NCBI GenBank assembly: GCA_001770205.1
Contig: MEQL01000044.1
Location: 1-64,000, forward strand
Source: Bdellovibrionales bacterium RIFOXYD12_FULL_39_22
Lineage (GTDB): Bacteria; Bdellovibrionota; Bacteriovoracia; Bacteriovoracales; Bacteriovoracaceae
Direction: 5' to 3'
DNA length: 64,000 bases
Numbering within the stretch: position 1 is the first letter of the stretch; the number at the start of each line of letters is the position of its first letter. A program made the translations under genes and the position numbers. The notes beneath the pieces were generated by a model. The model saw only the letters and a program-made list of their open reading frames with translations. It searched no databases and was not told where the DNA came from. Below are positions 1,659 through 60,700 of this stretch, one piece after another.

Positions 1659-1933
1659 AAACCTCCCCCCGGGTTGTGTTGTTATAGTGGAGACATTTTG
1701 TATCCAGTATAGATGGTAATCCAACACCTCTAGGGCAATTAATGTGCCAATAAAACTAGAATTAAAACTAAAAAAACTTACATTTAATAAAATGAAAAAA
1801 TGGGCAGGTAAAAAGAAAAATATTTGGCAAATCTTACTTTTTTATTAACGCATCGCACGGTGCATCGAGTAGTTCGTGATGTAGACAAGATGGCCAAGAT
1901 GGCCCCTACCTGAGCGAGTTATTTTGCGCTTTA

Positions 1934-2770: not shown

Positions 2771-2802
2771 TCCTTCAAATTATAAATTATAGAAAAAATC
2801 TA

Positions 2803-4068
2803 TTAAATTAGTTTTTTTATATTGTGCAGCCCCTCTTCAATCATCTCGATGGTGTAATCTAAATCTTTATCACTATGGCGATAGGCAATATATCCGTGAT
2901 GATAGGGTTGTAAAAAAACGCCACTACGAATTAGATGAGTGTAAAATGCCGGCCTTAACTTTTTATAAAGTTTTTTATCGTCCTGATTGAAGGTTATAAA
3001 AGGCATCCATGGGCCGCCGGAGAAATGGCAATCAATTTGGGAGTTAGTAATTATTTTTTCAACTTTCAAAGCAAAGCGCAATCCCTTCTCTTTTATGGCA
3101 TCTAAAATTTTATCACGTTCTAAAATTTCCAAAGTTTTAAGCGCGGCCACTTGTTCTAAACTGTTAGGATAAAAAGTAGAGCTTAAAAACACTTTGCTCA
3201 CTAACATATCCATGACCTCTGCTCGCCCGACGACGGCACTAATGGGGTAACCGTTGGCCAGTGCTTTGCCAAAGACGGAAAGATCTGGGGTTACCGAAAA
3301 CTCTTTTTGTGCTCCTCCTAAATTTACTCTAAAACCACTGCGAATCTCATCAAAAATTAATAGAGATCCATTTTTATGCGCAAGTTCTTTTAAATTTTGC
3401 AAAAAATTATTTTTTGGCATTTCCACTTCGTGCGCCAAGGGATGTCCTACAGGGGTAACAATAATTGCCGCCACTTCTTTGCTGTGAAGCTTAATGAGCG
3501 ACTCTACTTGAGCGAAATTATTATACTCAAACTCGAAAATATCTTCATAAAGTTTAGGGGGAATTCCACCTTTGACCTCCACGCACCAATCATGCCAACC
3601 ATGGTATCCACAGCGTAAAATTTTTGTTCTCTCCGTAAAACCACGAGCTATACGAATGGCCACCGACGTGGCATCGGAACCCGTTTTTACAAAGGCAGCT
3701 TTTTCGCAAGAGGGAATGAGAGATTTTAACTTTGAGGCCAATTGGTTTTGAATCTCTTGCGTAAGTGACATGCAAAATCCATTATTTTGAATATGTGCAA
3801 TGACCGCATCATCAATCTCTTTTTCTCGATGGCCTATGATGATTGGGCCGTAAGCGCAGAGCATGTCAATATACTCATTTCCATCCACATCAGTAACCCG
3901 ACCTCCCTTAGCGCTTTTAAAAAAAATAGGATATTCTCCGGGAACAAAATTATAAGGGCGTCTTATTCCGGCAACGGCCCCCGGAACCAATGTCAAAGCT
4001 TCCTCGTATAGTTTTTCAGAGCGTTCTAATTTTAATTTTGCTTTTTCACTATTTTTATTTGTTAACAT
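2803..4068 (-). CDS. kat: 3-aminobutyryl-CoA aminotransferase (PLP class III, acyl-CoA beta-transaminase)
   Basis: IFDEIRSGFR and FGKALANG PLP motifs. VPGAVAGIRRPYNFVPGEYP and YHGWHDWCVEVKGGIPPKLYED match my recollection of Cloacimonas Kat. Start moved to ATG 4068, which has an AAGGAG SD. Confidence 0.8.
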   Translation of the reverse strand: MLTNKNSEKAKLKLERSEKLYEEALTLVPGAVAGIRRPYNFVPGEYPIFFKSAKGGRVTDVDGNEYIDMLCAYGPIIIGHREKEIDDAVIAHIQNNGFCMSLTQEIQNQLASKLKSLIPSCEKAAFVKTGSDATSVAIRIARGFTERTKILRCGYHGWHDWCVEVKGGIPPKLYEDIFEFEYNNFAQVESLIKLHSKEVAAIIVTPVGHPLAHEVEMPKNNFLQNLKELAHKNGSLLIFDEIRSGFRVNLGGAQKEFSVTPDLSVFGKALANGYPISAVVGRAEVMDMLVSKVFLSSTFYPNSLEQVAALKTLEILERDKILDAIKEKGLRFALKVEKIITNSQIDCHFSGGPWMPFITFNQDDKKLYKKLRPAFYTHLIRSGVFLQPYHHGYIAYRHSDKDLDYTIEMIEEGLHNIKKLI

Positions 4069-4837
4069 GGGAGACTCCTTTGCGTTCAATAAGGGTGGTA
4101 ATTAGATAGGAAGCTACCATAGAAGGAAGTGTTCCTGGGCCAAATCCGGCATCATAACCCAATTCACAGGCCAGATCATTGGAGACTCGTGGCCCGCCGG
4201 CACAGATTAAAAAGCGTGAGCGCAATTGTTCGGCCTCTAATAGTTCTATGAATTCGGTAAAATTGCGGATGTGAGCATCTTTTTGAGTGACTGTTTGCGA
4301 CACCAAAATAGCATCAGCTTTTACTTCTAACGCTTTTTTCAGGAGAGCTTCTGGAGTTACTTGGGAACCCATATTATAGGCATCTATCTCCGGATAGCGT
4401 TCAAGGCCATAATCTCCATCGTAGCCTTTCATATTCATAATAGCGTCAATACCAACGGTATGAGCATCAGTTCCAATAGTGGCCCCTACAACAATTAGCT
4501 TACGATTAAGTTTCATCTTTATCAGATTATTAATTTCATAAAAATTCATTTTTAAAACGCTAACTTCGGTGGCCTCTACGCTATTATAATCAAGAGAGGG
4601 GATGGCCTTCCCGTAGGCCACAAAAAAAGTAAAACCATCAGTTAGTTTCTCGGCAAAAGAGATTTGCACTTCGGTAAGATTGAGTTTTTCTAAATACAGT
4701 TCTGCCGCTTTTTTTGCCTTCGCGGAAAGCTCCACGGGCAGAGTAAAGGAGACTTGTATCACTCCGTCATTTAAAGTATCTCCATATGGTTTGATCAGGT
4801 TATTAGTGGTGACATTTTCGCTAACTTGTTTATCCAT
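4055..4837 (-). CDS. kamE: Lysine 5,6-aminomutase beta subunit (AdoCbl-binding)
   Basis: KPYGDTLNDG, the DAHTVGIDAIMNMKG cobalamin/PLP motif and GYDAGFGPG. Confidence 0.93.
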   Translation of the reverse strand: MDKQVSENVTTNNLIKPYGDTLNDGVIQVSFTLPVELSAKAKKAAELYLEKLNLTEVQISFAEKLTDGFTFFVAYGKAIPSLDYNSVEATEVSVLKMNFYEINNLIKMKLNRKLIVVGATIGTDAHTVGIDAIMNMKGYDGDYGLERYPEIDAYNMGSQVTPEALLKKALEVKADAILVSQTVTQKDAHIRNFTEFIELLEAEQLRSRFLICAGGPRVSNDLACELGYDAGFGPGTLPSMVASYLITTLIERKGVSHVNK

Positions 4838-43423: not shown

Positions 43424-46400
43424 TTATGTTAGTTCTTTCCAGAAAAAGATGTAATCAAGCGCGTGTTTAAATGCTAACTGTTTCAGATTGGCATGTCCAG
43501 CATGTCCGCCATCAATGTTTTCATAATAATAAAATTGGTGGTGAAGCTCTTCAAGTTTTGCCGCAAATTTTCTAGCATGTCCCGGATGTACGCGATCATC
43601 TTTGGTAGAAGTATTTAAAAATATAGTTGGATATTTTTTGTTCGGAGGCAGATCCTTTTCAACACAGTGATAGGGGGAGATCTTGCGAATATACTCTCCA
43701 TCTTTTTCATCATCAGGATTTCCATATTCAGCAATCCAGCTATGTCCGGCCAACAGTTTATGATAACGTCGCATATCGAGCAGGGGCACTGCACAGTTTA
43801 TTGCGGCAAATAAGTCCGGGCGTTGAGTGTAGCAAACGCCCATGAGAAGGCCACCATTGCTTCCTCCCCATGCTCCGAGGTGACGGGGCGATGTGATTTT
43901 TTTTGCAAACAAGTCTTGAGCTATCGCAAAAAAATCTTCGTAGGTTTTATAACGATTTTCTTTAAGGGCACACTGATGCCATGTTGGGCCATATTCTCCA
44001 CCTCCGCGAATATTGGCCAGAACATAAACTCCACCTTTTTCTAACCAGGCAATGCCTTCAACATTTGAAAATTCAGGACACAAAGATACTTCAAAACCGC
44101 CGTAGCCATAGAGGATCGTGGGAGTATTACCATTAAAGACTAACCCTTTCTTGTGAACTAGAAAATATGGAATGGCAGTGTCATCAAAGCTTTTGACAAA
44201 ATATTGGTGGACTTCAATGTTCTTGTAATCAAAAAATGCAGGCTGGATTTTTACAACTGAAAAAGTTTCTACACCTGTCCCGAAATAATAGGAGGGCGGT
44301 GTATTAAAGGATGAATACATCACAAAAAAATTATCATTAGTGGCATCTGTGGTGAGTGCTTCGAGACTACCTTCGGAAGGAAGTTTAAGGTGGTGGCTTT
44401 GCCACGCAGATGAACTTTTTGTATAAAAATATAGATTCCCTTTGATATTTTCATTGATAATTACAAAAATCCCATTTTTGCTAATGGCCGTTGTGTGAAT
44501 CGAGCTGTTTTTTGCTGGCCGCAAAATTAATTCAATTGTTTTAGTTTGAAAGTCGTAGTGCAATAAATCACCTTGACAGAATTCTCTCCAGTTTTCTTTG
44601 ATTGTTACAAATAATGATGTGAGTGTGTGGCCTAAGTAGTCACACATTTGGGGTAAATCAATTTGTTCTGTTTTTGATGTCTCCTCGTTAAAGAGGAAAA
44701 ATTCTGAATGATAAAAGTCTATATTTCGCATCAAAATTATTTTATGCTCGGGGTTATTTGGTAAATAGAAGCTTCTTTGGAAAGCGAAGGTATCATTTTT
44801 TGAAATTTCAAAGACTGTTTTAGCGGAGGATAGTGTGCTGTTGCGCTTCCAGCGGCGGATAGTGCGAGGATATCCAGAAGCGGTTAAGGTTCCTTCTCCA
44901 AAATCGCGAGAGATAAGTATTGTATCATCATCTAACCAGACGGCCGAACCTTTGGATTTTGGTAAAACAAGGCCATCCGGCACAAATTGCAATTTAGTAA
45001 GATCAAATTCGCGTATTATATTTGCGTCGCAACCACCTGGAGACATGTAAATCAGAGCACGTTTTTGATTTGGGGAAATAGTAAAACCTTTTGGCACCCA
45101 TTTGATTTTTTCGATGTTGGAAAGTTGATCAAAGTCAATTACTGTTTCCCAGTTTGAATTATTTTTTTTGTATTCTTCGAGAGTAGTTCGTCGGAGAAGT
45201 CCCTGAGTATGCTCATCATCATACCAGGTGTTATATAAATATTCTCCATTCATATAGACGTAAGGAATTTTCTCCTTGGACTCTAGAATTTTAAGAATAT
45301 CGCTCTCTAATTTTGCAAATTCAGGGTGAGAGGTTAGTGGTTTTAGTGTGGTTTGATTTTTTTCTTTTACCCATGATATTGAGTCCTCAGATAAAACTTC
45401 TTCGAGCCAAAGATATTTATCATCTTGTTTTTTGATTACATTCATAATTTGCTCCACGGCCTTTTGGGTATTAAGATGATCCACCGTGGCCATTGGGGAT
45501 TTTACCGTTTTTTTGTAGTTTAAGTCGTAATAATTAACCATCATATCATCTAAAAATTTTTGATATTCGCCGTTATCAATGAATGCGTAAAGCATATTAG
45601 TTCGGGCAGGGCCTAGGCGTTTGGCGATATAGGAAATTTGTTCTCGTACTTGCGCAGTTGCCTCTTGGTTTTTGAAATACTCCTTTTCTAGGCGGGCCAG
45701 ACGCAATGCCAGTGGACATTCGAGAAGAATGTGATGCTCTTCTTCGAGTGCATCGAAAATAGCGGGGGGGATGGAAAATTTTCCAATGCGCTTGCTCTCT
45801 TTTTCTGAGAGAAAAACTGGCAGACGATCTTTGAATGGTAAAATTTGCAGAAAAAGATTGGTTTCAAACATCTGTTGATTGATGGGCATGGCGATCCCTT
45901 TTAGTTTAAAGCGAACTTCGCCAAAAACGGAGGAGGCGTGGCCAGCGGCACGTTCAATATGCAAAACGGGAAAAGTTGGATGGTTCTCTTCTAAGTATTC
46001 TAGAATTTCAGACTTGCCACAACCAGTTTTTCCGGAAAGAGAGATGATCTTAAATTTTGTCTCGTACATGTAGTGGTGTACAAGGCGACGAAACTCTTTT
46101 TGTCCTCCGGCAAGTTGGATAGCGTCAAAATTATTTTTTTGCAAAAGGTTAGTTGAATAGCGACTTCTTCCGCCACCTCGCCAACAAAAAACGATGATTT
46201 TCTTTTTACCATTATCAGAGCTTCGCGCGACTTGTTTTAAAAAATCAGATTCTTTTAGAGTGGCCAGGTGATAGGCGTAGTTGATCGCTTTTGCTTTTGA
46301 TACTTTGCTATAGATCAGTCCAACATCATGGCGTTCTTTATCGGTTAGAATGGGAATATTAATTGCGTATGGAATTGGGGTCTCGCTAAACTCGCGCTGG

Positions 46401-46582
46401 GATCGGACATCAATGATCACATAGTTGTTGGCACCATTTTTAACTATATCGAGAAAGGGGAGTAAATCTATTTGAGGGACTTTAGGGGCAATTTCTTTTA
46501 GCGAAACAGTTGAGAGGCATAACTGCTCAAGGAGAGCAGCAAGGTTAGCAACTTCTTGTGATTGATCATTTATCTTTTTCAT
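43424..46582 (-). CDS. Fusion of tRNA 2-selenouridine synthase (MnmH/SelU)-like and prolyl oligopeptidase (S9A) domains
   Basis: N-half has IDVRS..EF, ER..VG..Y, FCWRGGGRS, GKTGCGKS, ESKRIG, IAKRLG and YYD. C-half has DDKYLWLEE, a beta-propeller, YGYGGF, NIRGGGEYG, GGSNGG, DDRVHP and GGH. No stop between the halves. Confidence 0.85.
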   Translation of the reverse strand: MKKINDQSQEVANLAALLEQLCLSTVSLKEIAPKVPQIDLLPFLDIVKNGANNYVIIDVRSQREFSETPIPYAINIPILTDKERHDVGLIYSKVSKAKAINYAYHLATLKESDFLKQVARSSDNGKKKIIVFCWRGGGRSRYSTNLLQKNNFDAIQLAGGQKEFRRLVHHYMYETKFKIISLSGKTGCGKSEILEYLEENHPTFPVLHIERAAGHASSVFGEVRFKLKGIAMPINQQMFETNLFLQILPFKDRLPVFLSEKESKRIGKFSIPPAIFDALEEEHHILLECPLALRLARLEKEYFKNQEATAQVREQISYIAKRLGPARTNMLYAFIDNGEYQKFLDDMMVNYYDLNYKKTVKSPMATVDHLNTQKAVEQIMNVIKKQDDKYLWLEEVLSEDSISWVKEKNQTTLKPLTSHPEFAKLESDILKILESKEKIPYVYMNGEYLYNTWYDDEHTQGLLRRTTLEEYKKNNSNWETVIDFDQLSNIEKIKWVPKGFTISPNQKRALIYMSPGGCDANIIREFDLTKLQFVPDGLVLPKSKGSAVWLDDDTILISRDFGEGTLTASGYPRTIRRWKRNSTLSSAKTVFEISKNDTFAFQRSFYLPNNPEHKIILMRNIDFYHSEFFLFNEETSKTEQIDLPQMCDYLGHTLTSLFVTIKENWREFCQGDLLHYDFQTKTIELILRPAKNSSIHTTAISKNGIFVIINENIKGNLYFYTKSSSAWQSHHLKLPSEGSLEALTTDATNDNFFVMYSSFNTPPSYYFGTGVETFSVVKIQPAFFDYKNIEVHQYFVKSFDDTAIPYFLVHKKGLVFNGNTPTILYGYGGFEVSLCPEFSNVEGIAWLEKGGVYVLANIRGGGEYGPTWHQCALKENRYKTYEDFFAIAQDLFAKKITSPRHLGAWGGSNGGLLMGVCYTQRPDLFAAINCAVPLLDMRRYHKLLAGHSWIAEYGNPDDEKDGEYIRKISPYHCVEKDLPPNKKYPTIFLNTSTKDDRVHPGHARKFAAKLEELHHQFYYYENIDGGHAGHANLKQLAFKHALDYIFFWKELT

Positions 46583-46895
46583 TAGGTGATAATTTGTATC
46601 ATAGTTAAGGGGAAGACGGCCATAATTGAGAACAGATAGCTGGAACAATGTTAAGAGGGCCAAAGCTAGAGGCCCTAGCAAAGAAAAACGTCAGTCTAGG
46701 AAAGCAGAAATTATTTTCCTGTAAAAATTTCAAAAATATAGCTTCGATTGAAATTTTTGGTTATCATTCAAGTAGTAATTAACCGGGCCCGGCACACTCA
46801 AGTGATGAATACACTCAATAGTTCTGGGCCGATATCACTGATTGTATCGAGTTTTGAGACGATATTGTCAGTATAAAAAAAGGGAGGGGGGGGGG

Positions 46896-47348
46896 ATGAA
46901 GCTTATTATTATTTTAAATTTTTTTGTTATTACGTTGCTGGGCTCAATTTTTAGTTTTGCGGCCCTAGGGGCCGATTCGGTCATTTGCAGAAACGATGAT
47001 GCTGAAGAACATGGAGATAATGCGTGTGATTACTACATGATTTCTGGAAGAACAGATGATTTTAGCGGTCTACAGCTATCAACTTACAATCAGACTGCCG
47101 GCCGTACCTGCTGGTTAGTAAATCTTTTTAGCGACGCAACAGTAGTTGATCTAAAGGATGATGTGATTAAGTTGGAAGGGGTTTCTTCTAGCTCGAATGG
47201 TTGGAATAGGTCTACATATACTTATGCTGATCTCAAGTTGGACATGACTACCGGCGAAGGGATATTGTTGACTAAGGAAGGTAAAAGGCCAGAGGTACTT
47301 ATGATGTCTTGGAAAGAAGAGCGTTTGTCAAATTGTCGACGAGAATAG
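46896..47348 (+). CDS. Hypothetical secreted protein
   Basis: ATG 46896 after a G-rich SD; signal peptide; four Cys. Confidence 0.7.
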   Translation: MKLIIILNFFVITLLGSIFSFAALGADSVICRNDDAEEHGDNACDYYMISGRTDDFSGLQLSTYNQTAGRTCWLVNLFSDATVVDLKDDVIKLEGVSSSSNGWNRSTYTYADLKLDMTTGEGILLTKEGKRPEVLMMSWKEERLSNCRRE

Positions 47349-47588: not shown

Positions 47589-48872
47589 ATGGCCGGTTCA
47601 TTTAATCCGTTCGAAATGGCGCAGAAGCAATTTGATAAAGTTGCCAAGCAAATTGAAATTGATGATGCGACAAAAGATCTACTTCGCAATCCGATGCGTG
47701 AGTACCACTTCAACATTCCCGTAAAAATGGATGATGGTACAGTTAAAGTTTTTAGAGGATTTCGCGTTCAACATAATGACGCTCGAGGCCCAGGTAAGGG
47801 AGGAATTCGTTTTCATCCAGACGAAACCGTAGATACCGTGAGAGCACTATCTATGTGGATGACTTGGAAATGTTCACTTTTAGATCTTCCACTCGGAGGA
47901 AGTAAAGGTGGGGTTATTTGTGATCCACATAATCTTTCCAATCGTGAGCAAGAAAATATTTGCCGAGGATGGGTTCGACAAGTGGCGCGCAATATTGGGC
48001 CACTACAAGATGTTCCTGCTCCGGATATTATGACAAACGGTGCTCATATGTTGTGGATGCTAGATGAGTATGAAACGATTATGGGCGGAAAATTTCCAGG
48101 ACTCATTACTGGTAAACCTGTAGGCATGGGTGGATCTTTGGGAAGAACTGAGGCCACTGGATACGGCGTAGTTTACGTTGTGCGGGAAGCACTAAAAGAG
48201 TTAGGAATACAGGCCAATAAAACACAAGCTGCCTTCCAAGGTTTTGGAAATGTTTCTCAATATGCTATTAGAAAATATCAGGAATTAGGTGGTAAAGCTA
48301 TTTGTGTTTCTTCTTGGTCACAAGCTGATCAGAAGGCGTTTACGATTAAAAATAATGCCGGTATTGATGTTGATTCACTTCTATCTATCACTGATAGATT
48401 TGGTGGAATCAATCCACAAAAGGCCAAAGAACTTGGAAATGAGGTTCTTCCAGGAGATGCTTGGATTGAGCAAGATGTCGACATACTTTTCCCATGTGCC
48501 TTGGAAAATCAGATCACTGAAAAAAATGTTACCAAGATTAAATCGCGGGTACGTTTAATTGCAGAAGGTGCCAATGGCCCAACTACTCCAGAGGCCGATA
48601 AAGTAATTCATGAGAGAGGAATTTATTTGCTTCCAGATTTTCTGGCCAATGCTGGTGGAGTGACCTGCAGTTATTTTGAGCAAGTTCAATCTAATATGAA
48701 TTATTATTGGACTAAGGAAGAAGTTTTGGAAAAATTAGACCAGAAGATGACTCATGCTTATCATGAAGTGCATAAATTAGCACAAAAGCGTAAAGTCTAT
48801 ATGCGTGATGCTGCCTATATGATTGCTATTAATCGCGTAGCACAAGCATCGAAAGAGCGTGGCTGGGTTTAG
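47589..48872 (+). CDS. gdhA: Glutamate dehydrogenase (Glu/Leu/Phe/Val family)
   Basis: GFRVQHNDARGPGKGGIRF, MTWK, GGSKGG, DVPAPD, ITGKP..GGSLGR.EATG, QGFGNV, EGANGP and ANAGGV..SYFE. Confidence 0.92.
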   Translation: MAGSFNPFEMAQKQFDKVAKQIEIDDATKDLLRNPMREYHFNIPVKMDDGTVKVFRGFRVQHNDARGPGKGGIRFHPDETVDTVRALSMWMTWKCSLLDLPLGGSKGGVICDPHNLSNREQENICRGWVRQVARNIGPLQDVPAPDIMTNGAHMLWMLDEYETIMGGKFPGLITGKPVGMGGSLGRTEATGYGVVYVVREALKELGIQANKTQAAFQGFGNVSQYAIRKYQELGGKAICVSSWSQADQKAFTIKNNAGIDVDSLLSITDRFGGINPQKAKELGNEVLPGDAWIEQDVDILFPCALENQITEKNVTKIKSRVRLIAEGANGPTTPEADKVIHERGIYLLPDFLANAGGVTCSYFEQVQSNMNYYWTKEEVLEKLDQKMTHAYHEVHKLAQKRKVYMRDAAYMIAINRVAQASKERGWV

Positions 48873-48892
48873 TTAATTGCGAAGTCGTTGAG

Positions 48893-48925
48893 GGGAGGGG
48901 GAGGATACTCCTTCCTCCCATTTTG
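48893..48925 (+). terminator. Probable terminator after gdhA
   Basis: gggaggggagga-tac-tccttcctccc hairpin followed by attttg, between convergent genes. Confidence 0.6.
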
Positions 48926-48938
48926 TATTAAGGAACTC

Positions 48939-49379
48939 TTATCTGCTAAATGGTGAAAAGATTTTGTTCCAGTGGTCTAGCTGGTAGATGCAGTTATCCA
49001 TCACTTCTTTTAGTATTTTTGCATCAAATGGTTTTAGCAATAGAAAGCGAGCGTCATCGTAGTAGGCCGAAGAGGCCAAAGAGAAAGATTTATCTCCTGT
49101 CGCAAAAATTAAAAACGGTTTTTTATCTTTAATTTCAAAATATTTGATCAGAGTATCTCCTGATTTTTTTGGCATATGGATATCGGTAATTAAAACACTA
49201 ATATCTTTTTCAGAAAAAATTTTGGCCGCTTGATCGGGGTCTTGGTAGCTATGGATAGTGATTACTTCTTTAGGAAAAAGGTGTTCAAGTATTTGAGTCG
49301 TAGAATCTAAGACTATTTCGTCGTCATCAATTAGCACAATGTTATAGGGGCGATGATTCATGCGAAGACTCCTTGTCAC
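48939..49379 (-). CDS. Single-domain response regulator
   Basis: IVLIDDD, LITDIHMP, ATG and LLKPF motifs. Confidence 0.85.
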   Translation of the reverse strand: MTRSLRMNHRPYNIVLIDDDEIVLDSTTQILEHLFPKEVITIHSYQDPDQAAKIFSEKDISVLITDIHMPKKSGDTLIKYFEIKDKKPFLIFATGDKSFSLASSAYYDDARFLLLKPFDAKILKEVMDNCIYQLDHWNKIFSPFSR

Positions 49380-49520
49380 GGTAGTGTTAATTATATAGCG
49401 GTAAAGAAAATCTAATCAATAGGAAAAAAGAAGAATATATATTAACGAAATAAATCGGGTATAAAAAATTGCATATATTTAATTTGCATTTGTTTAATAA
49501 GGAATTATGATTGTCTTGTT

Positions 49521-52500
49521 ATGACACACTCTTCTCACAGTGATATCCCAAAATTTTCGGATAATTTTTTTAATTCGCAGGAGTTATTTTGTCGTATTGG
49601 ACAGGGAGCGATTGGTGGGAAGGCCGCCGGCCTTTTCAATGTAAAGAGCTCCTTTGTAGAACGCGCCAGTGGATATAAAAACTCAACAGTTTCTTTGCAT
49701 TTCCCGAAGACGGCAGTAATAACAACTGACTTTTTTGATCTTTTTTTAAAAGAAAACAATTTGTACAAGGTGGCATATTCAAATACCTCAGATAGCTATA
49801 TTGCTCATGAATTTCAAAGGGCCGGTTTGCATCCGAAGTTGGTGGAGGCCCTAAAATCGATAGTTAGACAGACCAGCGTACCACTGGCAATTCGCTCTTC
49901 ATCGATCAGTGAAGATGCGACGGATCGTCCATTCGCGGGCGTCTTTAATACTAAGATGATTCCGAATAATCCTAAGGATGATGAGCGATTTAAAAAGTTA
50001 TTAGAGGCCATCAAATTTGTCTATGCTTCAACTTTTTTTAAAAGGGCCAAGGATTATTATCAAGCACTAAAACGAGAAGCTAGTGATGAAAAAATGGCGG
50101 TGATTATTCAACCTTGTGTTGGTAATAGTTATGGCGATTATTTTTATCCAGAAATTTCAGGAGTGGTGCGCTCGAGTAATTTTTATCCCACGGGAAGTCT
50201 ACGGCCATCAGACGGGGTGGCAAATTTGGCCTTTGGATTGGGCAAAACTATTGTTGATGGTGGAATCGCTTGGATCTATTCTCCGCAAATTCCTTCCGCC
50301 CCGGCACCCTTTAATTCTACAAAGGAGTTGCTAGATAACACCCAGACAAAATTTTGGGCCATAAATTTATTTCAGCATCAAGAATATAATCCTAGTTCGG
50401 AGACGGAGTTTATTGTCAATGAAGATATTATTGATGCAGGAGACAATGATCTCTTTCCTATTTTGGCCTCGACTTATGACACTATGTCGGACAGAGTGGT
50501 GATGGGGACTCCTATCGATGGGCCTCGAGTGATTGATTTTGCTCCTATTTTAAAATTAGAAATGGTGCGACTAAATGAAGCGATTAAAGCAGTTATGGGA
50601 ATTTGCGAAGAGCGACTTAATTCGTCGGTGGAGATTGAGTTTGCTGTAGAGTTTGATAAAAACAAAAAAAATCATGCTCGTTTTTATCTGTTACAGGTGC
50701 GCCAAATGTCTCTTTCTTTTGAGACGATAGCAGTGGAAGAGAGTGAGTTATATGATGGAAATAATCTGGTGGCCTCGCGTACGGTGCATGGCAATGGACT
50801 TATAAGTGATATTTGTGATGTGGTCTACGTGCGGCCAGACAAGTTTGATCTCAAATATACTCAACAAATTGCCAAAGAATTAGAGTCGATAAATAGTGAT
50901 TTTATTAAAGAGAGGAAAAAATATCTTTTGATTGGACTGGGACGTTGGGGAAGTTCTGATCCATTACTGGGAATTCCGGTTAAGTGGGCGCAGATTTCGC
51001 AGGCCCGAGCTATTGTTGAAACTACTCAGCCTGGTATGTTTGTAGAGATGAGTCAGGGGACACATTTTTTTCATAATATAACAAGTTCTCACGTTTTTTA
51101 TTTTTCGGTGGAGTATTTTGATAAGTATAAAATCGATTGGGATTGGCTGGATCATCGAGTGGAGATTACTGAAACTCAATTTGTCAAACATGTGTCACTA
51201 GATAGGCCGCTGTATATTAAAGTTGATGGCCGGACCCAACGAGGAGTAATACAGAAATTTTTCATTGATAGGACTATTAAAGAAAAAGATGAGATCTCTC
51301 AAAAAGAACGGCGCAAGGAATTAAAGTGTATTTATGAAGTAGAAAAGCTTTTAGGGCCAAGCTCAAAATCGATGGATGAGGTGTTGGCCAAAGTGGCAGA
51401 GGCGATGCGCAGTGGTTGGATGTATCCAGAAGAGTGTGTTGTCCAAATTAATTATCAGAATATGCAAATAGGGAGTAGCAATTTTTGCAGTACTTCTTGG
51501 TGTTTACAAAATGAACTAGTGGCCTCAGGGCGTAAAGTTGGAGAGATAAAAGTTTGTTATCTAAAAGAACTTCCGGCCACCGATGTTGGGCCGTTTTTAA
51601 ATGAGGAAGTTAAGCTACTAGAAAATATTGGCAATTTATTGGCCGCCTATTTAGATAAATATGAAGGCGTTGCGGGTGATGATAAACAGAAAAAAGGGGC
51701 AAAAACGGCCAATTGGAAAATGGCCTTGGAGATGATTTCAAAAAGTGACGCAAAGTTATTGATGCTAGTAACCAAAAAGATGCTCTATCAGCTTTGTCTT
51801 AGTAATAATGCCAAGGCACAGGCCTTGCTAGAACAATTTGATAAAGATGCCGAAGAGAAAAGTAATGAAAGTTTTGGAGATGCTAATGTTCCACTGAAAA
51901 AAAAGGGCCATTTTGATGTAATAGATTTACGCGATGAGATCTTTGAAATTGCCACCAGTTTTTTTTCGGATCATGAAATTTTTTCCTTCTTAGATGCTTG
52001 GAGTCAGCAGCATAATGCTAATTTTTTAGTGGATATTTTAAGTAACCAACAGTCTTCAATGTCTGATATTATTAACGCCATTTCTCGCTATTTGCATATT
52101 TATCAAAATACCAAAAATCTTCCCGGGCCTACTAAAAGACAATTGCTTGTTTCTCTGATTGGCCGATTTATTACCACTAGTCCGGAATATATTCGAGTGG
52201 CCAAAAACTTTTTTGAAATTGAAGATTTTTTAGAGATACTTCATTTTGTAATAACTCCTACTCGTGGACATGGAACTATTGGCGGTAAAGGTGCTGGTAT
52301 GTTCTTGGCCTATAAAATTTTAAGTAAAGAGAGTAGTGGTGATTTTGGGACGCTAAAAATTCCAAAAACTTGGTATCTTTCTACGGATGCTTTTGACAAT
52401 TTTATTCACCACAATAATTTAGGTGATCTCTTTGAGCAAAAATATCGCCCAATTGATCAGATCAGACAGGAACATCCGCATATTGTTCAACTCTTTAAAA

Positions 52501-54473
52501 GTTCACCTTTTTCTAGCGATATTATCAAAGGATTGACAAAGGCCTTAGAAGATTTAGGCGACCTTCCTCTTGTTGTTAGGAGTTCTTCTATTTTAGAAGA
52601 TAGTTTTACCGCCTCCTTTGCCGGAAAATATAAGAGTCTTTTTTTGGCCAATCAGGGAAGTCGAGACCAGCGCCTGTCAGCACTGATGGATGCTATTGCA
52701 GAGATCTATGCTTCAACATTTGCACCAGATCCAATCTCTTATCGCAGCGAACGCAATCTCTTAGATGTAAAAGAGTCGATGGGAATTATGATTCAAGCGG
52801 TGGTCGGCCAGAAAGTACATGATTATTACTTCCCCTCTTTGGCCGGAGTAATGTTTTCGAATAATGAATTTCGTTGGTCTAAGCGCATCAAAAGAGATGA
52901 TGGCCTATTGCGAATTGTACCAGGCCTTGGTACTAGGGCCGTAGATCGGGTTAGCGATGATTATCCAATCCTCATAGCTCCTGGACAACCAGGGTTACGC
53001 GTTAATATTTCGGTGGAAGAGGTGGCGCGTTATTCTCCTAAAAAGATTGATTTGATTAATCTAAAAAAGGGGACCTTTGAGACGCATGATGTTTATAAAA
53101 TTTTAAAAGAACTAGGTTATGACTATCCTAAACTTAAACAAATTGTCTCAATCTACGATCGAACTCGCATCTATCGTCCGGCGGGAGTAGATTTGGATAT
53201 TGAAAATAGAGAGATGGTGGTAACTTTTGAAGGACTGTTTTCAGATACCAACTTTATTGCGCAAATGAAGCAATATATTAATCAGTTAAAAGAAGTTTTT
53301 GAGTTTCCAGTGGATGTTGAATTTGCTCATGATGGGAATGATTTTTATCTGTTGCAATGTCGGCCACAAATAAATGGCCAAGACAGTAGGTCGATCCCCA
53401 TTCCTAAAAATATTTCAAAGGAGCGCACACTATTTTCCGCCAATAAATTTATCTCTAACGGAGCGATTCCAGATATAACTCATATCGTCTATGTTGATCC
53501 GCAGTCCTATTCCAAAGTGGCCAGCATTGATGATTTAATTCGGGTAGGAGAGGCGATTGGACTATTAAATAAAATTTTGCCGAAGCGCCGATTTATACTA
53601 ATGGGGCCTGGGCGCTGGGGAAGTCGAGGTGATATTAAGTTGGGAGTACGTACTTCTTATTCTGATCTTAACAATACGGCCGTGCTTATTGAGATCGCCA
53701 GGAAGAAAGGAAATTATACTCCAGAGTTATCTTTTGGAACGCACTTTTTTCAGGATTTGGTCGAGTCCTCCATTCGCTATATTCCTCTTTATCCGGATGA
53801 TGAAGAAGTTGATTTTAATAATGATTTTTTTCAAAATGCCACCAACCTTTTGGCCGATTTGGCCCCCAATTATCAGGATCTGAGTGCAGTTGTTAGAGTT
53901 ATTGATGTTGGCCAAAACAGCGAAGGAAAAATTTTACGAATAGTAATGAGTTCAGAAGAAGATAGGGCCTTAGGTTTTTTAACTTACGCAGATGATTTAA
54001 CCGGACACATGGAGGAAGCACCTCCTTCTCCTGCGGGGCCGCCGATATCTGCCAGTAATTTCTCCACCTCCACGGTTTTTAACGTGGCCAAGGGTAATAT
54101 TTATGAGCGTAGCAGATGGAATTGGCGCATGTATATGGCCTTGGAGCTTTCTAAGCAATTAGATCGAGAACGTTTTGGAGTAGTTGATCTATATCTAATT
54201 GGAAGTGTGAAAACGGAAACGTTTGATGCGGAAAGCGATATTGATTTATTAGTTCATTTTGCGGGAGATGAACATCAACTTTGCTCACTATCTCATTGGT
54301 TGGAGGGATGGAGTCGTTGTCTGGGAGTGATGAATTATCTCTATTCTGGATATCGCCGTGAAGAGCTTTTAGATGTCAAGATTGTGACCGATGCTAATAT
54401 TGAAGAGAAGTATAAATATGCAGTTAAAATTGGGGCGGCAACTGATTCGGCCTTAAAGTTAGGGGGTAAATAG
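49521..54473 (+). CDS. 1650-aa protein: two PPDK_N (PEP-synthase-like ATP-grasp) modules, a GAF-like linker and a C-terminal Pol-beta-type nucleotidyltransferase
   Basis: IGGK, RSSS..ED...FAG, M.V/IIQ, GLG...V, EFA, LLQ.R, G.GRWGS and GTHFF each occur twice. C-terminal IGSV...SDIDLLV. No pyruvate-binding TIM barrel. Confidence 0.82.
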   Translation: MTHSSHSDIPKFSDNFFNSQELFCRIGQGAIGGKAAGLFNVKSSFVERASGYKNSTVSLHFPKTAVITTDFFDLFLKENNLYKVAYSNTSDSYIAHEFQRAGLHPKLVEALKSIVRQTSVPLAIRSSSISEDATDRPFAGVFNTKMIPNNPKDDERFKKLLEAIKFVYASTFFKRAKDYYQALKREASDEKMAVIIQPCVGNSYGDYFYPEISGVVRSSNFYPTGSLRPSDGVANLAFGLGKTIVDGGIAWIYSPQIPSAPAPFNSTKELLDNTQTKFWAINLFQHQEYNPSSETEFIVNEDIIDAGDNDLFPILASTYDTMSDRVVMGTPIDGPRVIDFAPILKLEMVRLNEAIKAVMGICEERLNSSVEIEFAVEFDKNKKNHARFYLLQVRQMSLSFETIAVEESELYDGNNLVASRTVHGNGLISDICDVVYVRPDKFDLKYTQQIAKELESINSDFIKERKKYLLIGLGRWGSSDPLLGIPVKWAQISQARAIVETTQPGMFVEMSQGTHFFHNITSSHVFYFSVEYFDKYKIDWDWLDHRVEITETQFVKHVSLDRPLYIKVDGRTQRGVIQKFFIDRTIKEKDEISQKERRKELKCIYEVEKLLGPSSKSMDEVLAKVAEAMRSGWMYPEECVVQINYQNMQIGSSNFCSTSWCLQNELVASGRKVGEIKVCYLKELPATDVGPFLNEEVKLLENIGNLLAAYLDKYEGVAGDDKQKKGAKTANWKMALEMISKSDAKLLMLVTKKMLYQLCLSNNAKAQALLEQFDKDAEEKSNESFGDANVPLKKKGHFDVIDLRDEIFEIATSFFSDHEIFSFLDAWSQQHNANFLVDILSNQQSSMSDIINAISRYLHIYQNTKNLPGPTKRQLLVSLIGRFITTSPEYIRVAKNFFEIEDFLEILHFVITPTRGHGTIGGKGAGMFLAYKILSKESSGDFGTLKIPKTWYLSTDAFDNFIHHNNLGDLFEQKYRPIDQIRQEHPHIVQLFKSSPFSSDIIKGLTKALEDLGDLPLVVRSSSILEDSFTASFAGKYKSLFLANQGSRDQRLSALMDAIAEIYASTFAPDPISYRSERNLLDVKESMGIMIQAVVGQKVHDYYFPSLAGVMFSNNEFRWSKRIKRDDGLLRIVPGLGTRAVDRVSDDYPILIAPGQPGLRVNISVEEVARYSPKKIDLINLKKGTFETHDVYKILKELGYDYPKLKQIVSIYDRTRIYRPAGVDLDIENREMVVTFEGLFSDTNFIAQMKQYINQLKEVFEFPVDVEFAHDGNDFYLLQCRPQINGQDSRSIPIPKNISKERTLFSANKFISNGAIPDITHIVYVDPQSYSKVASIDDLIRVGEAIGLLNKILPKRRFILMGPGRWGSRGDIKLGVRTSYSDLNNTAVLIEIARKKGNYTPELSFGTHFFQDLVESSIRYIPLYPDDEEVDFNNDFFQNATNLLADLAPNYQDLSAVVRVIDVGQNSEGKILRIVMSSEEDRALGFLTYADDLTGHMEEAPPSPAGPPISASNFSTSTVFNVAKGNIYERSRWNWRMYMALELSKQLDRERFGVVDLYLIGSVKTETFDAESDIDLLVHFAGDEHQLCSLSHWLEGWSRCLGVMNYLYSGYRREELLDVKIVTDANIEEKYKYAVKIGAATDSALKLGGK

Positions 54474-54605: not shown

Positions 54606-55013
54606 ATGAAATCATTATTTTTAATTTTTGGACTTATGATTTTTTCTTTTTCTCTTTTTGCAGAAGGCGAACTAAGTAGTAGTCAGAGTATCTATGAGGC
54701 CTTGGATGTGGAAGCGATTCAAGTTAATCCGGGGATTAATGGTGTCTATCGTTTAGAAAAGGGAGTGGGTGGACTTTATTGCGCAAAATCTAAAGTGGTT
54801 TCTCCGAATGCTGAGGATGAATATTTTTGTGATTTATTGGTGGAAGAAATGGATGCAGAAGCAATTTATAATGCTCTTTTAGTAGAAGAGGTGGCCGATG
54901 AACCGATGAGGTTCGGGGCCATGAGATTTTTTAAATCAGTGGGCGAATTGGTTTGTCTTAAATCAAAGATTGTCTATCCTGGGTCCAAATTTGAATATAG
55001 CTGTACTTTATAA
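54606..55013 (+). CDS. Secreted protein made of two ~52-aa repeats
   Basis: Signal peptide; IY.AL.VE...K.VG.L.C.KSK.V.P...EY.C.L occurs twice. Confidence 0.75.
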   Translation: MKSLFLIFGLMIFSFSLFAEGELSSSQSIYEALDVEAIQVNPGINGVYRLEKGVGGLYCAKSKVVSPNAEDEYFCDLLVEEMDAEAIYNALLVEEVADEPMRFGAMRFFKSVGELVCLKSKIVYPGSKFEYSCTL

Positions 55014-55054: not shown

Positions 55055-55078
55055 GTAACAGGGAAAACTCCCTGTTAC
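55055..55078. terminator. Hairpin between convergent genes
   Basis: gtaacaggga-aaac-tccctgttac perfect 10-bp stem. Confidence 0.6.
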
Positions 55079-56409
55079 TTAGTTAACACTTCTTTTACTC
55101 TTTCTTCAATGCGCTCCGAATCAGAGAGCGCATTTTTTTCTCCGGATGTATTTGATTGTTGGCGAGTGGCATTCAAAATTGCCTTGATGGTGCCTTCATC
55201 ACATTCTTTGATCATTTCGCAAACAGATCCCATTCCCTTGGCCACCTTGCCGTTAACGAAGGTGTCAAGAACCGAACCTTTAAGTTCGCCGGATAGGCGT
55301 TGCTCCAAAATTAGTTGCGCCATTTCTCCTTGAGTTTTAAATTGATCCATTTTTAGAAGTAAAAATTCACCATCATCATATTTATTGTGCGCCTTTTCTA
55401 TTGCCTCTGTTACTTCTTTATCTTTTGATTCAAGATAGATCACAGATGCTACCACTTTTTTTTCTTCCTCCGTTAATTCATCAACTTTTCCGGAGGTCTC
55501 GGCGAGCTTATTCTTTTTTTCTGAGAAGTTATTTAGACGATATCCTTCCATTTTTTTGTTAGCAATGTATTGGTCAATTTTTCGTTGAACATCAGGAGGT
55601 AGCTTTTTAAGTGCCTCTTCGGCGGAGGCAATGGCGGCATTACGCGCAATTACGGAAGAAGAAATTTTAGCTTCTAGCTCCCCCTGGACCTTTGTATATT
55701 TTTTTTGGTTTTCTTTAATTTTTTCTGTCCGATCTACAAACTGTTGTTTTAATTTTTTGACTTCCTCGGCATCAAGGTGTTTTGTTAATTGGCTCCAGTT
55801 GGGTTCAACTCCACTGGCAATGTCTTCGCGAGCAACTTTTGCGGCCTCAATTTTTTCAGGAGTTTTTTTCTCTAGTTTTTCATTCTTTTGCAGTTTCTCA
55901 TTGACCTCGACAATGGCGTCAAGGGAGGCCATGGATTGTTGTCGTAATTTTTTTTCTTCATTTATGGCAACATCTGTGGCCTGGGCCTGGGCATCGATTG
56001 CTGCCTCAAGATCGGCAATTGTTTGGTTTTGAGTATCACGCACAGATTTTAATTCAAAAAAGAGCTTTCTAATCTTTGCATCTTGTATCAAAGTTGGATT
56101 GGCCTCCAAATGTCTTAATAATCCTTTTTCCAATTTGGCGTTATATTCTTCTTCATCTTTTTCATTGCAGAAAATGCAAGATGGTGAGGAGTCGCCAAGT
56201 TCTGTATCCCATGGACAGCTAAATACATTGGCACAAGTTTCATAACCTTCATCGGTATCAGAGGTAGATTTCTTACAACTGGTTGGATCTTTTTTGTATT
56301 CACAGATATCACTGAAGTGTTTTTTTACGCTGTAGGCGCTGACGGAAAAAGCAAATGCCGAAGAGATGGTTAGGGTTGCTAGTAAAATGGTGATCAATAC
56401 TTTTTTCAT
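55075..56409 (-). CDS. Secreted coiled-coil protein with a Cys-rich N-terminal domain
   Basis: GGAGGAG SD, signal peptide, six Cys early in the mature chain, then a long Lys/Glu helical region. Confidence 0.75.
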   Translation of the reverse strand: MKKVLITILLATLTISSAFAFSVSAYSVKKHFSDICEYKKDPTSCKKSTSDTDEGYETCANVFSCPWDTELGDSSPSCIFCNEKDEEEYNAKLEKGLLRHLEANPTLIQDAKIRKLFFELKSVRDTQNQTIADLEAAIDAQAQATDVAINEEKKLRQQSMASLDAIVEVNEKLQKNEKLEKKTPEKIEAAKVAREDIASGVEPNWSQLTKHLDAEEVKKLKQQFVDRTEKIKENQKKYTKVQGELEAKISSSVIARNAAIASAEEALKKLPPDVQRKIDQYIANKKMEGYRLNNFSEKKNKLAETSGKVDELTEEEKKVVASVIYLESKDKEVTEAIEKAHNKYDDGEFLLLKMDQFKTQGEMAQLILEQRLSGELKGSVLDTFVNGKVAKGMGSVCEMIKECDEGTIKAILNATRQQSNTSGEKNALSDSERIEERVKEVLTK

Positions 56410-56452
56410 CAAACTCCTCCAGTTAATCTTTAATGTAATTCACACAGTGAGC

Positions 56453-59401: not shown

Positions 59402-60700
59402 TCAGAGGCCCTCTTCTTCTTCATCAAAAAGATCTTGTTCGGTAGAAGTTGGGTCGTCTAAATTGATGGGTTCTGGCCGCAATAACTTGGCGTTAGGATC
59501 ATCGCTGTTTTCCTCCGGAGCACTTTCACTTTCACTGGGTTCTTCACTGTAGTTGTTGATTGGTTGAAGCTCTTCAGCGGGCATGCCATTATCTGCTAGG
59601 TCTGGCCCCTCAGGCATGGCCGGGTCATCAACCATTCCGGCCTCACCAACATCTTTAGAATGGTTGGTGGGATCATCACGAAGTTTTTTGCTTGAGCGGT
59701 AGGCCTTAGATTTGCTAAATGGAGTTTGACCGCGTGTTGGCCGACGAGTCACCACTTTTCGAGCACGGCCATTGGATTTTGTTGGTAGAGGAGAAACTTG
59801 ATTGCTGCTAGGAGATTCTAAGGCCTCAACATTTGAATTCATGGAGTCATTGGCCTCTTGATTAGGACGATAGACGTTACCACTGTTGCTAGATTTTCTG
59901 GTTGAGAGGACATCTTTTTTAGGTGCTTGCGTCGCATAAATGGCCAGTAAAATAAAGGAGCCTAAAATTACCAGCGAAAGCGCTAAATATGAAGAGAACT
60001 CTTTTTTAGGAGAGATTATGGGCCCTAAGCTAGTTTCTTCTTCAGTAACTTTATGATTTGTGCGCTCTTCACTTTTTTGAGGAGTGCTTTTTCTTGTCAC
60101 TTCATCTTTGCTGCTTTTATTCCCAAGAACTACGAGTCCAGCAATGGCATCGCTAGTATCATCGATGCGATGCATGGCCTGGGTGTCTTCATCGTATTGT
60201 GTGTCCGTTGAGGTTGATTGCGGAATGGAGGGAAGTTCATTGGCACTTTCTCCTCCGCGACGATCCAATTCTTTAATTTGAAAAATTTTAACCCATTTAT
60301 TGGAGTCGTTTACGCTAATGAGATCGGTATATAGTAACTTTTGAGCTTGCAGGCGGTCTAAAATATCGTAGTAATTAAATGGCCCCTTTTTTTGGCCATG
60401 TTCGAGTAAGTAGAAATTGGCCTTGGACATTGTAGTGCTTGGCAGTTCGATAGTCGCCGAAAAAGTCATGGATTGTTTTTTCTTTAACGCTGCGTTAGAG
60501 GCCAAGGCCCCCCACTCTGTTGATCCATAAGTTCGCATAAGAACTTGTGTTGGTATGGTATGACTAATTCGATAATCTAGGATGTCATCAAGTAAAAATA
60601 ACCCTAAACTTTTTCCCTCGTGTTGGAGCTCCACAATATCTTTGCGGCCAGCAAGCTCTTGAGGGTTGACATTTTTTAGAGCAATATCTTTTAGATCCAT
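59402..60700 (-). CDS. GYF_2 (DUF4339)-domain bitopic membrane protein
   Basis: FYLLEHGQKKGPF...W..I..IKEL motif; one transmembrane helix; acidic disordered C-terminus. Confidence 0.65.
   Translation of the reverse strand: MDLKDIALKNVNPQELAGRKDIVELQHEGKSLGLFLLDDILDYRISHTIPTQVLMRTYGSTEWGALASNAALKKKQSMTFSATIELPSTTMSKANFYLLEHGQKKGPFNYYDILDRLQAQKLLYTDLISVNDSNKWVKIFQIKELDRRGGESANELPSIPQSTSTDTQYDEDTQAMHRIDDTSDAIAGLVVLGNKSSKDEVTRKSTPQKSEERTNHKVTEEETSLGPIISPKKEFSSYLALSLVILGSFILLAIYATQAPKKDVLSTRKSSNSGNVYRPNQEANDSMNSNVEALESPSSNQVSPLPTKSNGRARKVVTRRPTRGQTPFSKSKAYRSSKKLRDDPTNHSKDVGEAGMVDDPAMPEGPDLADNGMPAEELQPINNYSEEPSESESAPEENSDDPNAKLLRPEPINLDDPTSTEQDLFDEEEEGL

Follow-up and report, generated by a model that had tools for sequence, protein, structure and literature searches.

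The 64,000-nucleotide window analysed here (positions 1 to 64,000 of contig MEQL01000044.1, forward strand, assembly GCA_001770205.1, from Bdellovibrionales bacterium RIFOXYD12_FULL_39_22) contains, near the glutamate dehydrogenase (GDH) gene gdhA, a single gene for a protein of 1650 amino acids (aa) that joins two dikinase-like modules to a sensor-type domain and a nucleotidyltransferase (NTase). Besides gdh, a widespread gene module contains a gene for a ~580-aa protein and a gene for a ~1060-aa protein, and these two are joined, by a lineage-specific fusion, in the gene described here. Its domain anatomy, the conserved residues, the linkage to gdh and the distribution of split and fused forms are established. 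Since separate versions of the two genes neighbour gdh in hundreds of species, the fused gene is probably part of an unstudied system of GDH control. By analogy with known enzymes we infer, for the catalytic and the regulatory steps alike, that the fused dikinase-like sensor and NTase acts on GDH and thereby sets GDH activity, a proposal that we hold tentatively and rate a little short of an even chance. The features of the locus are as follows (window coordinates, strand).

47589..48872, +: gdhA, 427-aa hexameric-type GDH of the module-linked clade (Pfam, ELFV_dehydrog 2.7e-77, ELFV_dehydrog_N 5.9e-54)
48892..48917, +: terminator-like hairpin directly 3' of gdhA (10-pair stem with 6 G-C pairs, T-rich tail; consensus match only)
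48939..49361, -: lone receiver (REC) gene, 140 aa from its likely ATG start at 49361 (Response_reg 3.4e-15)
49521..54473, +: fused gene P0001, 1650 aa (open frame, contigs with 0 differences)
49608..50723, +: module 1 ATP-grasp domain (PPDK_N; PF01326 1.3e-34, genome scan)
50709..51263, +: module 1 GRWGS/GTHFF domain, aa 397-581 (His515 codon 51063-51065; aligns with its module 2 counterpart, alignment A7)
51264..51266, +: fusion junction, ATT codon of Ile582 (start of the 1069-aa gene call P0005; no in-frame stop)
51285..51683, +: predicted GAF-fold sensor domain, aa 589-721, with an invariant KELxCxY motif (predicted model, fold matches)
51711..52253, +: predicted linker region, wholly helical, aa 731-911 (model residues 147-327)
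52275..53402, +: module 2 ATP-grasp domain (PPDK_N; PF01326 2.5e-61, genome scan; best Pfam stretch aa 919-1293)
53403..53993, +: module 2 GRWGS/GTHFF domain, aa 1295-1491 (His1408 codon 53742-53744; predicted model, pLDDT 86)
54090..54470, +: minimal (MNT-type) Pol-beta NTase, aa 1524-1650 (NTP_transf_2 4.7e-07; G1561 S1562, D1573, D1575, D1618)

The first-pass annotation of this stretch, made from the sequence alone, had described one 1650-aa open reading frame (ORF) lying next to gdhA with a lone receiver gene between them. The layout is as it described: the 1650-codon frame is open throughout 49521..54473 (+) with no stop, and gdhA (47589..48872, +) is separated from it by the receiver ORF (48939..49379, -). 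The motifs also stand exactly where it had placed them, namely IGGK at aa 31 and 920, GRWGS at 474 and 1364, GTHFF at 513 (His515) and 1406 (His1408), ERRKELKCIY at 596, GPFLNEE at 690, GS at 1561 and DIDL at 1573, and the proposed domain order of sensor (GAF), ATP-grasp, His-bearing domain and NTase agrees with the Pfam and fold results given below.

The distribution of related loci was surveyed with one genome per species, which gave at least 591 genomes with a relative, and the best 80 loci were kept. Going by record titles, these loci belong to metagenome-assembled genomes with the labels Acidobacteriota, Zixibacteria, Planctomycetota, Calditrichia, Ignavibacteria, Bacteroidota, Gemmatimonadota, Myxococcota, Chloroflexota, Bacillota, Cloacimonadota, Fermentibacteria, Eisenbacteria, Krumholzibacteria and others. 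A gdh gene 54-77% identical to that of the window lies beside the module in 70 of the 80 loci (tblastn), directly upstream on the same strand in 68 and divergently in 2. Seven of the ten remaining loci have less than 700 nt of upstream DNA and one (L056) has 1.1 kb; only L071 and L078 are truly without gdh. In 56 loci the order is gdh, ~580-aa gene, ~1060-aa gene, and in 18 the ~1060-aa gene follows gdh directly. The gdh linkage of homologues, which the first-pass annotation had also stated, is thus borne out by gene neighbourhood and is very strong. The GDHs concerned are ordinary hexameric-type enzymes of ~420 aa (63 sequences, mean column identity 80%). Of the catalytic lysine motifs, K70 and K106 are conserved to at least 90%, and GG..GG does not vary. 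Against the 62 full-length gdh genes linked to the module (alignment A6), the window gdhA shows 54-75% identity, and its closest solved structures are archaeal-type (1euz, 1.9e-130; 1gtm).

A census of downstream genes covered the 53 loci with enough downstream DNA, 54 of 99 candidate ORFs being put through Pfam. A calcineurin-like phosphoesterase (Metallophos) is the first downstream ORF in 18 of these 53 loci, mostly in convergent orientation, and its product is a possible reversing enzyme. In three loci (L027, L036, L085; one labelled Melioribacteraceae, one Bacteroidetes) the first downstream gene is hisG, for ATP phosphoribosyltransferase.

The two halves of the window protein correspond to two proteins that are normally separate, as the first-pass annotation had supposed. 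Over their full length, residues 1-581 share ~50% identity with a very large stand-alone ~580-aa family of PPDK_N type (7980 of 8000 candidates at E<=1e-3), and residues 582-1650 are ~48% identical to an equally large ~1060-aa family built of GAF domain, helical linker, PPDK_N and minimal NTase (alignment A1; 36 sequences, mean column identity 65%). Where both genes occur (56 loci), they are separate neighbours in 55, and an open-frame test at the DNA level found them fused in one frame in a single locus of the 80 (L023, labelled Ignavibacteriae). At the protein level, 21 of the best 120 clusters have fused length (1523-1655 aa). The description "giant double dikinase" applies to a rare and recurrently arising form and not to the norm.

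A tree of the ~1060-aa part was built from 22 fused proteins (the 21 clusters and the window protein) and 35 unfused ones. The label "fused" changes 7 times on this tree, at least 4 of the changes being forced by well-supported branches, and none of 500 label shuffles gave a number as low; the window protein and the related P0004 form a long-branched pair of their own. Proteins were classed as "unfused" from the length of the gene call, and at least one of them, P0005 from the window itself, is an internal-start call on a fused ORF, so that the count of fusion events may be a little too high. When neighbouring genes fuse again and again, this is classical evidence for products that act together. 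The repeated fusions therefore provide independent genetic evidence that the two enzymes act as one complex; such joint working is most likely, and would in turn explain why the halves have been fused repeatedly.

A second pairing of the same kind occurs in the genome, on contig C40 (locus L131). At 1486-4422 (-), this contig encodes a 978-aa protein with a REC-like N-terminus, PPDK_N and the motifs GPGRWGS...QGTHFF, and its gene overlaps by 8 nt a 399-aa gene (294-1493, -) that matches ELFV_dehydrog_N (E 6e-10). The 399-aa protein aligns weakly but collinearly with GDH (E 0.032), and it looks like a catalytically degenerate GDH homologue because the GDH motif LPLGGSKGGV is replaced by LPWASSFCAV. 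It appears to be without the GGxKGG catalytic motif and may be a pseudo-enzyme partner. Apart from gdhA, ELFV_dehydrog_N matches no further gene of the genome, so that each of the organism's two ELFV-family genes lies beside a PPDK_N gene of the GTHFF type. The REC-type paralogue also has a GDH-like neighbour in seven further loci, several of them from Acidobacteriota (L020, L039, L058, L059, L072, L074, L086), and in two genomes of the window's own phylum (L124, L129), with L009 as a case in which no GDH-like neighbour was detected. This recurring pairing is independent support for a direct functional tie of such proteins to GDH-fold proteins.

Pfam recognises in the whole 1650-aa protein PPDK_N, twice (2.7e-95), and NTP_transf_2 at aa 1549-1585. 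The two dikinase-like modules are paralogous (aa 1-600 against 880-1500, 27% identity over 555 columns, E 1e-40). The ATP-grasp invariants of module 1 are GGK, RSSS..ED, E371/E373 and Q392/R394 (alignment A5, 31 sequences), and GGK and RSSS-ED are invariant in both the ~580-aa and the ~1060-aa families (A5, A1), so that both ATP-grasp domains are apparently intact, judging by these residues. By motif, the GGK lysine corresponds to Lys22 of rifampin phosphotransferase (RPH), which is essential in that enzyme (PMC4844700).

Beyond the ATP-grasp domains, the likeness to the phosphoenolpyruvate (PEP) synthase and pyruvate phosphate dikinase (PPDK) families ends. Neither the PEP-utilizers swivel domain (PF00391) nor the PEP-utilizers_C barrel was matched in the fused protein by Pfam at E<=0.01, so that the pyruvate-binding barrel is indeed absent, as the first-pass annotation had it; in a whole-genome scan, PF00391 did not match the fused gene at E<=1, and matched three other genes at 1e-24 to 3e-13. 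These three encode canonical, swivel-bearing PPDK_N enzymes, two on contig C10 and one on C41. The best NCBIfam matches, to PEP synthase, PigC, RedH and RPH, are partial and cover ATP-grasp parts only, at 68-111 bits against cut-offs of 598-1350; among them, PEP synthase models reach 98-111 bits against 598-883, and the RPH model NF041857 reaches 68.4 bits against 999, matching only the ATP-grasp part at aa 941-1112. A phmmer comparison of the whole protein with PDB sequences likewise returned only the ATP-grasp domains of RPH and PEP synthase entries (best E 1.1e-05). Because two of the three defining PPDK features are missing and the RPH models are not reached, the fused protein is placed outside both the PEP synthase/PPDK and the RPH families, although its first half-reaction is, by analogy, probably like theirs.

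In the place of the swivel domain, each PPDK_N is directly followed by a ~190-aa domain without a Pfam family (no Pfam match on aa 401-600 for module 1), named here after its GRWGS and GTHFF motifs. G474 R475 W476 G477 S478 and G513 H515 F516 F517 are invariant in the module 1 family (A5). Over three paralogous families, represented by 51 aligned sequences of the ~580-aa, ~1060-aa and REC-bearing types, the invariant core comprises Asn, Leu, G-R-x-G, Glu and S-x-G-x-H-F-F. A profile of this alignment found, among 1.84 billion, 2466 cluster representatives at E<=1e-3 and 790 at E<=1e-30. In 17 members of odd length the only Pfam families were PPDK_N (17 of 17, always ending at the domain start), Response_reg and DUF5752, and none of the 17 was a fusion with GDH; the best 150 of the 2466 matches were listed, and rarer builds could escape. 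By sequence comparison, then, GRWGS/GTHFF is a family distinct from the canonical swivel domain.

A predicted model of aa 1284-1650 (m73731fa866ad; 57 homologues, pLDDT 86), which also shows a disordered linker and the minimal NTase, places His1408 at the N-terminus of a predicted helix (model residues 124-132). Seven fold matches cover the His domain, with Z 5.0-5.6. One is an RraA-like protein (Z 5.1), a family that shares the swivelling beta/beta/alpha fold, and three are of swivel type, namely the phosphoryl-carrier domain of PPDK (2fm4, Z 5.6, 115 residues aligned), RPH residues 756-867 (Z 5.3) and, from pyruvate kinase, the C-terminal domain (2e28, Z 5.2). The swivel domain of RPH is residues 767-865 (PMC4844700). 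In the ESM Atlas the His domain matched unnamed clusters or clusters called "putative PEP synthase", apparently pieces of this very family, and a Foldseek search with the C-terminal model gave nothing at E<=1e-3, its matches being NTases and scattered large proteins. The domain occupies the place of the swivel domain and may share its fold. The role of phospho-carrier proposed earlier for the GTHFF histidine is favoured by its invariance in three paralogous families, its position at a helix N-terminus and its constant occurrence after PPDK_N, but the likeness to swivel domains holds at fold level only (Z 5.2-5.6), and profile comparison, detailed below, brought nothing.

The segment that begins the second half of the protein had been called GAF-like. 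A model of aa 585-913 (m7335f185fec3; 50 homologues, pLDDT 85) gives aa 589-721 a clear GAF fold, the best match being 3cit (Z 13.6, rmsd 2.0 over 123 residues; VIA), followed by DosP (9bgv, Z 13.4), NifA (8jrc, Z 11.9), PtsP (3trc, Z 11.7) and also Nlh1/2. The search returned 61 chains at Z>=8, nearly all of the top 50 rows being GAF domains, with a Foldseek probability of 1.0. Pfam gave 0 families on aa 581-900 at E<=10, however, and since no Pfam GAF model matches, the description is right at fold level only. The helical linker that follows (aa 731-911) has neither a Pfam match nor a listed fold match.

The NTase scores 30.6 bits with NTP_transf_2 (cut-off 21), and G1561, S1562, D1573, D1575 and D1618 are invariant among the 36 sequences of A1, residues by which this MNT-type domain is judged intact. 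Its best fold matches are 2rff (Z 7.9), 1wot (Z 7.6) and an MNT antitoxin (8xeh, Z 7.6), with Foldseek probabilities of 0.99-1.0, and its MNT-fold relatives include the aminoglycoside nucleotidyltransferases ANT(4') and AadA. The earlier comparison with GlnE and GlnD does not extend to domain type: the best matches are of the minimal MNT type, and no GlnE or GlnD family was found in Pfam or NCBIfam at E<=0.01. MNT antitoxins AMPylate HEPN toxins; no HEPN family was among the Pfam matches for the fused gene and its neighbours, in scans that included no search aimed at HEPN. A reading of the locus as a defence system was rejected, PADLOC matching the NTase only, with candidate family PDC-S09. 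The C-terminal tail of the protein (aa 1634-1650, window 54422-54470) carries the pattern A-x-K-I-x-A-x-T-D-x-A, which does not vary among 36 sequences of many phyla and could serve for docking or self-modification.

In the mechanism that we propose, the GAF domain would bind a small metabolite reporting nitrogen, carbon or redox state, and this ligand would gate dikinase-type chemistry. Each ATP-grasp domain would load a phosphoryl group from ATP onto His515 or His1408 of the adjoining GRWGS/GTHFF domain, which would stand in for the canonical swivel domain. The loaded enzyme and the MNT-type NTase would then act on GDH, by phosphorylation and/or nucleotidylation or by forming a complex with it, and GDH activity would be set by that modification or complex. 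In a more far-reaching version, which we regard as doubtful, the module would be a new covalent-modification switch for GDH, the counterpart of GlnE and glutamine synthetase in at least 591 species, in which the GAF domain senses, the swivel-less modules load His, the NTase marks GDH and the metallophosphoesterase erases the mark. If this were true, the window protein would unite the complete writer complex, ready-made, in one chain.

Several observations weigh against action on GDH through a phospho-histidine. Linkage leaves GDH as substrate unproven, as a metabolite or signalling partner would give the same pattern. Co-transcription is lost in this genome and the usual operon is broken, because a terminator-like hairpin and a gene on the opposite strand follow gdh. 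No Metallophos gene was found beside the window gene by Pfam, and a search of the genome (94.6% complete) with a query from L080 gave no module-type Metallophos either, although this search, having no positive control, shows little. For the His domain, the remaining fold matches are to unrelated proteins (a DRTGG protein, a cellulase and a phosphotriesterase), and Z values of 5.0-5.6 are in the range common by chance. Swivel sequence is not recognisable in it (PF00391, none at E<=1), hhalign of the alignment of His domain and NTase (A2) against 19 canonical swivel domains (A4) gave a probability of 0.1, and the A2 profile found among PDB sequences only nucleotidyltransferases and none for the His domain. 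The invariant Arg, Glu and Ser beside the His could equally well belong to an active site of another kind. A prediction of the complex between GDH (A6) and His domain plus NTase (A2) gave scores of 0.00 and 0.00, which are informative neither way.

The invariant Arg, Glu and Ser could form a substrate site in the alternative of a small-molecule enzyme, in which the modules and the NTase would phosphorylate and/or nucleotidylate a metabolite connected with glutamate catabolism, or make a signalling nucleotide, GDH being a neighbour in the pathway. The same ATP-grasp/His chemistry is applied to non-pyruvate substrates by RPH, glucan water dikinase, PigC/RedH and the two-subunit phenol-type dikinases. 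All of the best partial NCBIfam matches are small-molecule enzymes, though far under their cut-offs, and the relatives ANT(4') and AadA of the NTase point in the same direction. RPH performs its chemistry without a pyruvate barrel (PMC4844700). Yet no candidate substrate-binding domain was found, the non-catalytic parts of the fused protein being the GAF fold and the helical linker, and a GAF input, like the REC input of the paralogue, is typical of regulators. Moreover, the pairing of the paralogue with a GDH-like protein that lacks GGxKGG fits protein-protein regulation better than a shared pathway, and we consider this alternative unlikely.

A different role is suggested by the receiver gene between gdhA and the fused gene. 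The fused protein could be a non-canonical histidine kinase that passes its phospho-His to receivers, here the adjacent REC protein, with gdh merely co-regulated. The receiver scores 56.6 bits with Response_reg (cut-off 30.2) and has all the acceptor-site residues in its translation (a DD pair, the acceptor Asp in LITDIHMP, Thr in FATGD and Lys in LLKPF). Its start is GTG 49379 in the ORF list, with AAGGAG lying 7 nt before ATG 49361, and it is divergent from the fused gene, upstream of it across an AT-rich spacer of 141 bp. The third paralogous family also has REC domains fused to it (C40 gene, L072, P0276, P0317), and VadK of Mycobacterium tuberculosis is described as a PPDK-derived histidine kinase (PMC13400623). 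The receiver is, however, peculiar to the source genome, and because no REC homologue was found in the 80 related loci (tblastn, E 1e-5), it lies outside the conserved module. The paralogue carries its REC domain at the N-terminus, where inputs and not acceptors usually lie, and a histidine kinase would leave the NTase domain without a role. These points make a histidine kinase improbable.

It is far less probable still that the fusion is artefactual or unused, the two genes having been joined by an assembly or sequencing error, or a 1069-aa product being made separately from an internal start. One gene call, P0005, does begin a 1069-aa product at the ATT codon of Ile582; it starts MDRTIKEK and equals the window protein from aa 582 onward. 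A GGAG-containing stretch lies ~17 nt before this codon (window 51240-51266) and may be the relic ribosome-binding site of a once-separate downstream gene, or an internal start still in use. The earlier annotation had suggested looking for reads that show two genes; instead, contigs bridge the junction in a single open frame. All 6885 bases are spanned by contigs of two public DNA runs (X1, X8) with 0 differences, though these runs may be the source data, and a 171-base contig of a further study (X9) crosses the junction between module 1 and the GAF domain (51263/51264), also with 0 differences. P0004, of 1639 aa and 65% identical to the window protein, has the same fused build, which with the junction-spanning contigs establishes that the single ORF is no assembly slip; the 21 clusters of fused length and the DNA-level fusion in L023 agree with this. 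That the protein is an ordinary, duplicated PEP synthase or PPDK can be practically dismissed, for the PPDK_N matches, and database names such as "pyruvate, water dikinase" from some sources, stand against the missing barrel and swivel domain, the low NCBIfam scores and the three canonical enzymes elsewhere in the genome.

The module appears foreign to the lineage of the source organism. No match to the ~1060-aa part was found at E<=1e-60 in 60 other genera of Bacteriovoracaceae, and no orthologue-level match to the ~580-aa part in 150 sampled genomes of the phylum, 8 of which carry only a paralogue of ~930-1040 aa that is 36-41% identical to it. In five complete genomes of the family, the best GDH is 38-42% identical to that of the window, compared with 61-66% for the housekeeping protein PSP1. 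Because the module is unmatched in relatives and the GDH identity falls far under that of PSP1, module and GDH type look to have been laterally acquired together, as far as these partial samples reach. GC content, 0.36-0.41 across the module and 0.35-0.45 in its flanks, argues neither for nor against lateral transfer. The window gdh is the only PF00208 match over cut-off in the genome (94.6% complete), and by this measure it is the only true GDH gene of the organism.

Other genes of the window were also surveyed. At 43424-46681 (-) lies a gene for an unusually long prolyl-oligopeptidase S9 protein (1085 aa), which begins with a rhodanese domain and has a weak AAA-like stretch. In four loci (L036, L041, L051, L084) an S9 homologue, 37-40% identical, occupies the same position upstream of gdh; these loci are labelled Melioribacter or Bacteroidota except for L036, which is labelled only "uncultured bacterium"; synteny may therefore extend beyond the module. 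Four ORFs have no Pfam or NCBIfam match, at 54606-55013 (+, 135 aa), 55075-56412 (-, 445 aa), 46842-47348 (+, 168 aa) and 59402-60700 (-, 432 aa), and the first three of these have no PADLOC match either.

GDH stands at the junction of carbon and nitrogen metabolism, and to our knowledge the post-translational control of bacterial GDH is poorly understood compared with that of glutamine synthetase. With its sensor domain, its nucleotidyltransferase and its ATP-grasp/His chemistry, a module that travels with one GDH type through many phyla makes a strong candidate for such a control system, or else for a GDH-coupled reaction, and in its GRWGS/GTHFF domain the dikinase superfamily may have a phospho-carrier of a new class. 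Expression and study may be simpler with the single polypeptide of the window than with two proteins, and the source organism is a natural test case in that the GDH of the module is the only true one in the genome. A literature search that missed most subscription journals found no paper on the module family or its GDH link. Four features are new here: the fusion into a single chain, with its recurrent origin, the operon that is broken and includes a receiver gene, the apparent co-acquisition with a sole GDH and the second pairing with a degenerate GDH-like protein.

The first step of the proposed mechanism has its model in RPH, PPDK and PEP synthase, in which the His attacks the beta-phosphate of ATP in the ATP-grasp domain and carries the phosphate to a second site (PMC4844700). 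The fused protein shares with them a PPDK_N domain with the GGK lysine and RSS motif, followed by a small domain with an invariant His. It differs in lacking the rifampin-binding domain and the PEP/pyruvate barrel, and the T-S-H-A-A of the swivel domain is replaced by S-x-G-[ST]-H-F-F, with the GRWG loop in addition. Two-subunit dikinases such as phenylphosphate synthase, and reportedly also the acetovanillone system AcvAB, distribute dikinase functions over separate adjacent gene products, which indicates that PPDK_N proteins can work in hetero-complexes; these systems act on phenolic small molecules, use canonical swivel domains and have no GDH link, GAF domain or NTase.

The nearest functional counterpart is VadK (Rv1127c) of M. 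tuberculosis, a cut-down dikinase that regulates a central metabolic enzyme. It is presented as a PPDK reduced to the ATP-binding and His domains, which autophosphorylates on His422, binds methylcitrate-cycle enzymes and tunes flux (PMC13400623). The likeness is one of architecture only, a PPDK_N-type ATP-binding domain with a His domain and no barrel. VadK, by the published account, keeps a PPDK-type His domain, unlike the fused protein, whose His domain has no detectable similarity to PF00391. It has no GAF domain, NTase or paralogous partner, and is linked to the methylcitrate cycle and not to GDH; the two proteins are likened by description only.

In nitrogen control itself, EI-Ntr (PtsP) resembles the fused protein in having a GAF domain N-terminal to a His-autophosphorylating phosphotransfer enzyme of nitrogen metabolism, and its GAF domain is among the fold matches listed above. 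The GAF domain of E. coli EI-Ntr responds to glutamine and 2-oxoglutarate. Unlike the fused protein, EI-Ntr uses PEP and not ATP, has a canonical swivel domain and barrel, passes its phosphoryl group to NPr, and lacks both ATP-grasp domain and NTase. GlnE (ATase) and GlnD (UTase), Pol-beta nucleotidyltransferases that reversibly modify glutamine synthetase and PII, offer the conceptual model for nucleotidylation of GDH, although the NTase of the fused protein is a minimal domain of ~125 aa, nearest to 2rff, 1wot and the MNT antitoxins. EI-Ntr, with its GAF domain and phospho-His, and the NTase modifiers GlnE and GlnD are thus the nearest conceptual analogues in nitrogen control.

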